From Heptranchias perlo (lineage: Eukaryota), in assembly GCF_035084215.1 (NCBI RefSeq), contig NC_090370.1, positions 25,730,001 through 25,794,000 of the forward strand: 64,000 bases of DNA, in the 5' to 3' direction. The position numbers and the translations under genes are program-made. This document shows positions 10,978-33,289 of this stretch, piece after piece; within the stretch, counting starts at the first letter, position 1, and each line of letters opens with the position of its first letter. The notes beneath the pieces are model-generated. The model was not told the DNA's origin. It worked only from the letters and a program-made list of their open reading frames with translations, and did no database searches.

Positions 10978-11072
10978 GCTCCAGTAGCGTAATCGGTTCG
11001 CGTGCAGTATTTATGTAACAGTATTAGGCTCGAGCAATGCCGAGGTTGTGAGTTTGAGCCTCACCTGGAGCA
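10978..11072 (+). pseudogene. tRNA-Ile(TAT) pseudogene, intron-containing
   Basis: Acceptor stem intact but several D- and anticodon-arm substitutions and GTTTGA in the B box. TTTT follows. Confidence 0.8.
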
Positions 11073-19692: not shown

Positions 19693-20688
19693 AATTACCA
19701 TTAAAGGTGAAGACAAGGTGATTGTATCAGTTCGAGTTTGGACCTTTGTAATGTTTTTCTTTCCTTATTTTTATCTTCTTCAGATTCCAACTGATCAGAA
19801 AACTGACAACTGAACTCTCAATGAATTTTCGATAAATCTGTCACTCAAAATAAACAATGTTAGAAATAAAGAAATCAACCGGATTGAGACGGTTCACTTC
19901 ACTTCACTGAAACGTCGAATTCCGGTTAAACCGGCGCGGCGGAGTCACAGCAGCTCATCGCTGATCTGCACCTCAACTCTATTTAGCGAAACAGAAACTG
20001 GAAAATTCATGTTTCGAGACGAGTTCACTAATTTCCTGAAAAATGAATATCACTAAACCAGAAAAATATTCCCTGCCCTGATTAAAGACACAGTCGAATA
20101 TATCGCAAGAAACCCGCGAATTTATTATTACACGGATAGAATACCGTGCTCAATATTAACATTAACACTGAGCGCTTTACCCCGTGGTGCGGGACCCCGT
20201 CCGCGTTTATATTTACCAAAAAAAAAGAAAACCAGAAAATAATAATCTCACCCGGCGGAATTGGGGATTGTTCGTATTTTACAGGAAAGGATGAGGCCAC
20301 TGGGCCCCTCAGGCTTGGATAGTAAATTCTGTTCACATTCTCCGCTCGGTGTTGTTCTCCGTGTACATTTTCAGTTTCCCGATTTGACTTTGTTTTATTT
20401 CCCGTCTCTTTATTTTGCTGACTGAGTGCGAAAGCGATTGCTTTAAAGGCAAAACGTTTTGATCAAAGATTTGAACATTGTTTATTCTGATTGTAGGTTT
20501 CTCGGAGACCCAGCGGGAGTTCAGTTGTCAGTTTCCGGATCAGTCGGAAACAGTCGAGCCAACTTGCTGCAAGAGAGAAAACAATAAATGAACAACGTCA
20601 ACAAAGCGAAAGGAAGAGAAAGAGACAAGCAGTGTATTAACCATCTCTGCCCATCGTTTAGGATCATTTGGTGAATCAATTCGTCATC

Positions 20689-20778
20689 GGTCGCGTGGCC
20701 TAATGGATAAGGCGTATGACTTCGGTATTAACTCGAGTTGTTATCAGAAGATTGCAGGTTCGAGTCCTGCCGCGGTCG
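20689..20778 (+). tRNA. tRNA-Arg(TCG) with a 17-nt insertion at the canonical intron site (20726-20742)
   Basis: GGTCGCGTGGCCTAATGGATAAGGCGTATGACTTCGG-[tattaactcgagttgtt]-ATCAGAAGATTGCAGGTTCGAGTCCTGCCGCGGTCG then TTTT. Exons differ from vertebrate Arg-TCG at two positions, one giving an anticodon-stem mismatch. Confidence 0.88.
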
Positions 20779-20988
20779 TTTTACTCGCTGGGTGAAAATT
20801 TGTCCGACGTGTGCCCGAAATGTTTTGCACCCGACCGTTTCGAACAGTCGGATGGAACAGAAATCCCTAAATTACATTGCTTTCAGAAATTGACTCCACA
20901 TTTTCAAAATTGTAGATCTGGGTGCACGGGCAGGACATAGTGTAAAAGTGACTTTATTTCTACTGTTTGGATTCAGAAATGTTCGGCG

Positions 20989-21034
20989 AATCCATTGTGC
21001 TCTGTCGGTATGGGTCCGAATCCCATCCGTGTCG
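20989..21034 (+). pseudogene. tRNA-Ser(GCT) 3' half relic
   Basis: AATCCATTGTGCTCTG..TGGGTCCGAATCCCATCCGTGTCG matches the Ser-GCT variable arm, T arm and acceptor. Confidence 0.6.
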
Positions 21035-21193
21035 TTATTGTATTGAACTTTTGTTATGGCCCACCATAAGTTTTGTACAATCAAAATGGGCTTCAAAGCT
21101 ATTAATACCAATCCGACACCGGTGTTTGAAGTCTGTATCCCTGGATTGTTTATATTTTGTTGAAATGGAGAGGGACAACTTGTCTCATAAACC

Positions 21194-33218: not shown

Positions 33219-33289
33219 TGCGATGGCCGGGAATCGAACCCGGATCAACTGCTGGAAGGCAGCTATACTCACCACCATACCACCATCGC
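33219..33289 (-). tRNA. tRNA-Gly(TCC) with a 6-nt anticodon loop (probable pseudogene)
   Basis: GCGATGGTGGTATGGTGGTGAGTATAGCTGCCTTCCAGCAGTTGATCCGGGTTCGATTCCCGGCCATCGCA. Confidence 0.8.

Follow-up and report, generated by a model that had tools for sequence, protein, structure and literature searches.

In the genome of Heptranchias perlo, a short insert between positions 37 and 38 is the rule for tRNA-Arg(TCG) genes: pattern searches identified 106 genes with the insert versus two without it, the latter on contigs C37 and C26 and the only ones found under looser patterns. Judging from sequence, these genes appear to form a real and well-supported vertebrate Arg-UCG family with a canonical intron, in which the mechanism is ordinary and the isotype unusual. 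It is this intron family that constitutes the finding, rather than the single copy flagged in an earlier note, which lies at positions 20689-20778 of the window (the whole 64,000-nt stretch of DNA analyzed here). That note had called for a genome-wide count of intron-containing Arg-TCG loci and had named an insertion unique to one mutated copy as the case that would go against it; this case is excluded by the 106 intron-bearing genes.

When the genome was searched with a pattern that crosses the splice site and permits a gap of 0-25 nt, 103 matches were obtained, versus none for the reversed control. Among the 100 matches listed, 99 have an insert of 15-17 nt at 37/38 and one has no insert. 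These 99 copies, together with seven from a separate search, make up the gene set used throughout (n = 106, in which copies on unplaced contigs may be counted twice). They are located in clusters on C49, C284, C402, C1286, C1313, and C1392 and at a lone site on C21. Their introns are 17 nt (67 genes), 16 nt (38 genes), or 15 nt (one gene) in length and fall into 32 distinct sequences, with invariant bases at +3, -6, and -1 that partly reflect descent, the copies being kin by recent duplication. Position -1 is T in all 106 genes, and positions -7 to -9 are variable. Two copies, L202 and L239, have C at intron position -3 with no compensatory change and represent natural mismatches of the anticodon-intron (A-I) pair.

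At the sequence level, the family has the elements of Pol III type 2 genes (A box, B box, and T4 terminator), and the U13:A22:A46 triplet is kept in 103 of the 106 copies. No broken stem pair is present in 85 genes, an intact count inflated by the search pattern, in which the anticodon arm was fixed; 82 genes combine intact stems, boxes, terminator, A-I pair, and anticodon, and the other 24 fail in at least one of these. Upstream 12-mers occur in 46 distinct forms across the set. Among 22 near copies, diversity is 0.071 in the intron, 0.018 in exon 1, and 0.008 in exon 2, and the 30 nt downstream (0.019) are as conserved as exon 1.

The anatomy of the flagged copy is given in Table 1. A profile search of the 64-kb window matched the Rfam tRNA model at 20689-20778 with 48.2 bits (E = 3.1e-07), and both this match and the exon/intron split agree with the coordinates and bases first given for the tRNA. 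The 17-nt insertion that the earlier note had placed exactly between G37 and A38 is present there, and the same site is used in all 106 genes; the A and B boxes and the T4 terminator are intact, as had been described, and G20740 is indeed the antepenultimate intron base, able to pair with C32.

Table 1. Features of the flagged tRNA-Arg(TCG) copy and its surroundings (positions in the window)
Feature	Position	Strand	Support or frequency
tRNA-Arg(TCG) exon 1, positions 1-37, 37 nt, ending in G37	20689..20725	+	Rfam match and sequence
A box, inside exon 1	about 20696-20706	+	
C32	20720	+	
Anticodon TCG	20722-20724	+	
17-nt intron at the G37/A38 junction	20726..20742	+	same variant in 10/106 genes
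Intron -6 G, in register with C35	20737	+	G in 106/106 genes, 32/32 distinct introns
Intron -3 G, partner of C32 (A-I pair)	20740	+	G in 104/106 genes, 31/32 distinct introns
Exon 2, positions 38-73, 36 nt	20743..20778	+	same sequence as in the intronless gene linked to POLG
B box, inside exon 2	about 20758-20766	+	
T4 run (TTTT), Pol III terminator-like	20779..20782	+	T4 within 19 nt in 105/106 genes
Private substitution at position 28, 28:42 anticodon-stem pair lost	20716	+	1/106 genes
Variant at position 3, 3:70 becomes a wobble pair	20691	+	common to 6/106 genes
Flanks in common with sibling copies, duplicated segment of the C49 tRNA/histone cluster	20560..21080	+	5-sequence alignment, 396/601 columns invariant

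The anticodon-stem mismatch that had also been reported is A28-G42, and the flagged copy is the sole carrier of a broken 28:42 pair in the gene set. Compared with the intronless POLG-linked gene, it shows two differences, at positions 3 and 28. Its forced cloverleaf is computed to lie 11 kcal/mol above its best fold, versus 0-2.5 kcal/mol in six siblings and 0 in the intronless gene; with the mismatch and this fold, its mature domain is not predicted to be intact. ARAGORN, run with introns allowed, called an Arg(tcg) gene at 26 of 30 loci, the intron being 16-17 nt long, and missed the flagged copy and three others. The modeling suggests that this copy is probably a damaged and impaired family member, a poorly folding allele that is weak or dead. 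The proposal of a spliceable intron thus holds up for the family, for which position, length, the kept A-I base, and copy number argue at the level of sequence, but less so for the flagged copy, which is the weakest kind of member.

The inserts resemble introns of the TSEN type in several respects. All 106 lie exactly between N37 and N38, and at 15-17 nt they are short; tRNA introns of this type are generally 15-30 nt (PMC10485636). The A-I pair between N32 and intron position -3 can form in 104 genes, including the flagged copy. The other in-register pairs are 34:-5 in 77 genes, 35:-6 in 106, and 36:-7 in 75, and an anticodon loop-intron helix (bulge-helix-loop) is found in one of two registers in 97 of the 106 genes. 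Counted in Watson-Crick pairs, the loop helix measures 2.56 bp versus 2.04 +/- 0.10 in shuffles; when G-U pairs are allowed, the excess is small (3.63 versus 3.36 +/- 0.16). The earlier note had also pointed out that CGAG in the intron is complementary to the TTCG loop. This pairing is present in the flagged copy, but its interpretation as a conserved helix was rejected, the register occurring in 21-22 of 106 introns and a helix of the same length in 11% of shuffles of the flagged intron (p = 0.109). For several siblings, L205 and L183 included, folding predicts a cloverleaf in which the A-I pair forms and a 3-nt bulge is present at the 3' site; for some copies, a slipped helix is computed to be more favourable than the cloverleaf. 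At the family level, the cloverleaf on which the ruler mechanism depends is intact, a result partly fixed by the search pattern.

The window contains seven histone stem-loops, four tRNA genes, and ORFs reading as H1, H2A, H2B, H3, and H4. Among the relatives listed for its histone H1 (at least 120), all those with a name are from sharks or rays. Two Ile-TAT genes, at 32-126 and 10978-11072 (both on the + strand), have 21-nt introns and are likely impaired copies, each carrying substitutions in its anticodon arm or its boxes. The tRNA at 33219-33289 (-) has an anticodon loop one base short, and its isotype call failed in ARAGORN; we take it to be of the Gly type. A decayed tRNA-like remnant, which presumably resembles Ser-GCT, lies at about 20935-21035 (+) and is common to sibling units.

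Several other tRNA families were searched for in the genome. Seven pattern matches were obtained for Arg-TCT (including L255-L260), all with introns and about half of them degenerate; under this pattern there was no intronless Arg-TCT gene like the mammalian brain-specific one, and the family is not amplified in the clusters. Most of the 100 Tyr-GTA matches listed belong to a large array on C23, with one 3' intron deletion at C23:13945201. Arg-CCG with a TCG-type body had no match in the genome, and the 11 matches to Arg-CCG of another body are all intronless under a pattern that admitted inserts only up to about 14 nt. The Leu-CAA pattern, which was probably too strict, gave a single match.

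The intronless Arg-TCG gene on C37 (L031:5010-5083, -) is intact, has a T5 run, and is embedded in 500 CpG-rich bases. It is arranged head-to-head with POLG, the POLG-domain frames of which begin about 5.6 kb away (L174:673-5253, +); support for POLG comes from three PF18136 matches among the 111 frames scanned (best E = 1.2e-37). The exons of the intron-bearing genes are identical to this gene in 20 of 106 cases and differ from it at 0-6 positions, the limit of six per exon being set by the match. The second intronless gene, on C26 (L171:1485-1557, +), has another body with nine differences, a compensated 29:41 pair, and a T run. A lone intron-bearing copy is found on C21 (L032:4961-5048, +), 1.3 kb from an Ile-AAT gene; its 15-nt intron has diverged further than any other and ends in the same 3' pattern, its cloverleaf fold is the best, and it represents a candidate founder-like locus. 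No gene neighbours were identified around the C26 and C21 genes, where only retroelement and repeat matches were obtained. We assume that the shark Arg-TCG body is identical to the human sequence. In human, the POLG promoter contains Arg-TCG-1-1 (PMC5425787), and the linkage shared by human and shark suggests that the C37 gene is likely the orthologue of the mammalian Arg-TCG gene and the intron family paralogous to it, and that the Arg-TCG/POLG linkage has likely been conserved since the jawed-vertebrate ancestor.

By analogy with the pathway and intron class defined in PMC10275265 and PMC10485636, we consider it quite probable that the family is transcribed by Pol III, cut by TSEN through the ruler mechanism and the A-I pair, and ligated by RTCB. 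Transcription would follow the established pathway, the intron would be excised before RTCB joins the exons, and the spliced product of 20 of the 106 copies would equal the RNA of the intronless gene. Since all copies have the POLG-type body in common, along with the intron bases at +3, -6, and -1, a single origin would be expected, in which the intron was inserted into a paralog of that body; segmental duplications of tRNA/histone clusters may then have multiplied the family, as with Ile-TAT and Tyr-GTA. These two families have 112 and 203 genome matches, respectively, and an intron in 100 of the 100 matches listed for each. The tRNA splicing machinery must therefore exist in the shark, and the high copy number of the Arg-TCG family is accordingly not special. 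A Pfam search of the shark genome for the TSEN domain, performed exon by exon and therefore weak for an exon-split gene, was negative for all eight candidates. Among 21 sequencing runs listed by a run search, three DNA runs from one sample contained 0.43-0.61 of the words; in the remaining runs, some from other organisms and two from fish gut metagenomes, the share was 0.07-0.18, RNA runs included, and these runs do not count as evidence.

The cluster copies could instead be mostly silent passengers of segmental duplication, with the intron rarely or never processed and Arg-UCG supplied by the two intronless genes, both of which are intact and have T runs, one being CpG-rich and beside POLG. 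The co-duplicated and near-identical flanks would agree with this, as would the decayed tRNAs in the same units, the 24 of 106 genes with a defect, and the precedent of zebrafish, in which most clustered tRNA genes are in closed chromatin (PMC11574265). We nevertheless regard it as unlikely: exons remain near-identical across many flank families (46 distinct upstream 12-mers), and introns in 32 forms keep their pairing G bases, a pattern that requires the spliced product to be, or at some time to have been, under selection. Far less probable still is that the family was derived from intron-bearing Arg-TCT by an anticodon shift or that a nearby Ile-TAT gene donated the intron. In a yeast, what looks like a gain is explained by such a shift (PMC4090602), and the flagged intron aligns with the Ile-TAT introns of the window at p = 0.002-0.004 when these are taken as single comparisons. 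However, of the 73 positions of the Arg-TCG body, 21, 21, and 25 are different in three intact Arg-TCT genes, versus 0-6 in the intronless Arg-TCG gene, so that an anticodon shift is ruled out, and the Ile-TAT similarity is lost family-wide, whereby this donor was rejected as well. When the 32 Arg introns were compared with permuted ones, p (mean/max) was 0.37/0.46 for Ile, 0.18/0.26 for Tyr, 0.22/0.19 for Arg-TCT, and 0.89/0.87 for Leu; family-wide similarity to the introns of these isotypes did not exceed chance (p = 0.18-0.89).

An intron-bearing Arg-UCG family could have arisen by recent gain or be much older. The earlier note had proposed a lineage-specific gain, and its gain part is favoured here: intronless sequence appears to be the older state because the POLG-linked gene, the cow genes (73 bp and intronless in 4/4 of the supplement set; PMC2680898 file 2), and most metagenome matches are without introns (153 of the 155 Arg-TCG matches listed from metagenome contigs, representing 138 loci). 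The lineage-specific part is where an alternative of evenly balanced probability stands, namely that intron-bearing Arg-TCG is old, occurs widely in vertebrates outside the mammals, disappeared from the mammalian lineage, and is already present in tRNAscan-SE/GtRNAdb tables. This alternative is compatible with the proposed mechanism and contests only the lineage-specific gain; an old jawed-vertebrate family lost in mammals, or prior cataloguing in fishes, fits the data equally well. The lone C21 copy beside Ile-AAT, with its diverged intron and shared 3' end pattern, suggests age. Shark genomes have been analyzed by tRNAscan-SE and are rich in intron-containing tRNA loci, the isotype being unnamed in the accessible text (10.1101/2025.06.08.657570), and elephant shark predictions are included in the tRNAscan-SE 2.0 work (PMC8450103). 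In addition, since 26 of 30 loci were called unaided by ARAGORN, intron-bearing Arg-TCG genes are very likely to be present in automated tRNA catalogues of shark genomes. Against an old or catalogued family, no paper naming it was found in the largely open-access literature covered, and no metagenome contig matched the shark body with an insert, vertebrate DNA being scarce in that material. Moreover, near-identical matches to a cow Arg-TCG gene, with introns left in, occur in every vertebrate examined there but lamprey (PMC2680898 file 5). This shows intronless Arg-TCG in bony fishes and leaves room for intron-bearing paralogs there, and the chance that bony fishes or amphibians share the intron family is about even. 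It is worth noting that two metagenome contigs, L115 and L129, contain Arg-TCG genes of another body with 21- and 23-nt inserts at 37/38; they likely represent an independent case and show, by sequence, that Arg-TCG can carry an intron elsewhere too.

No description of an intron-bearing vertebrate Arg-TCG was found in the literature searched, which included few subscription papers. The accessible parts of PMC4536317, PMC4839721, 10.64898/2025.12.01.691575, PMC9858662 and PMC8450103 (both with supplements), 10.1101/2024.01.30.575011, and PMC11417395 do not mention it, and the supplements of PMC11574265, as far as accessible, give zebrafish Arg-UCG names without intron data. The set of intron-bearing vertebrate tRNAs is usually equated with the four human families, and a fifth family in sharks would represent either a datable gain or a mammalian loss; how canonical tRNA introns are gained is considered an open question (PMC4090602). 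The intronless gene and the intron-bearing copies also offer a matched pair for studying the effects of an intron on expression and modification, because 20 of the 106 copies code for a mature RNA identical to that of the intronless gene. A more speculative possibility, which we consider less likely than not, is a two-tier supply of Arg-UCG, in which more than 100 TSEN-dependent cluster genes would serve cells with high demand (for example in oocytes or embryos) and the old intronless copy beside POLG would yield the same RNA independently of splicing, the family being a fifth vertebrate intron family, undescribed and gained once in cartilaginous fishes. If so, CGA decoding would be tied to tRNA splicing, and so would CNOT3-linked mRNA decay, as CNOT3 is recruited via U13:A22:A46 by a set of tRNAs that includes Arg-UCG (PMC11583848).

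Comparison with known systems places the family close to canonical ones. The human intron-containing families are Tyr-GUA, Ile-UAU, Leu-CAA, and Arg-UCU (PMC10275265), in agreement with the list in the earlier note, and canonical vertebrate families share with shark Arg-TCG a short intron at 37/38, pairing of C32 with the antepenultimate G, complementarity to the anticodon, and introns that vary among copies. The difference lies in the isotype, as Arg-UCG is absent from the human families in the accessible text of that paper and cow Arg-TCG is 73 bp in all four genes. The setting of the window is the same as that of the published shark tRNA/histone clusters, which are rich in intron-containing loci (10.1101/2025.06.08.657570); the accessible text gives no breakdown by isotype, which its figure or supplements may list. 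Human Arg-TCG-1-1 is adjacent to POLG like the shark C37 gene, the body of which is that of the intron family; the C37 gene has no intron, and the intron family is located elsewhere, in the clusters and on C21. Mammalian Arg-UCU comprises four intron-bearing genes and one intronless brain-specific gene (PMC10485636), and is thus mixed like shark Arg-TCG, the minority of intronless genes bypassing TSEN in both. Unlike in Arg-UCU, intron-bearing genes outnumber intronless ones roughly 50-fold in the shark, and the mature RNA of one intronless gene is also that of many intron-bearing copies. In yeast, recent intron gains have been inferred for tRNA-Ala(UGC) and Gly(UCC) (PMC4090602), which likewise involve an isotype with introns where relatives have none and no intron-bearing donor body; the shark family differs from them in belonging to a vertebrate, in having more than 100 copies, and in the retention of intronless paralogs.
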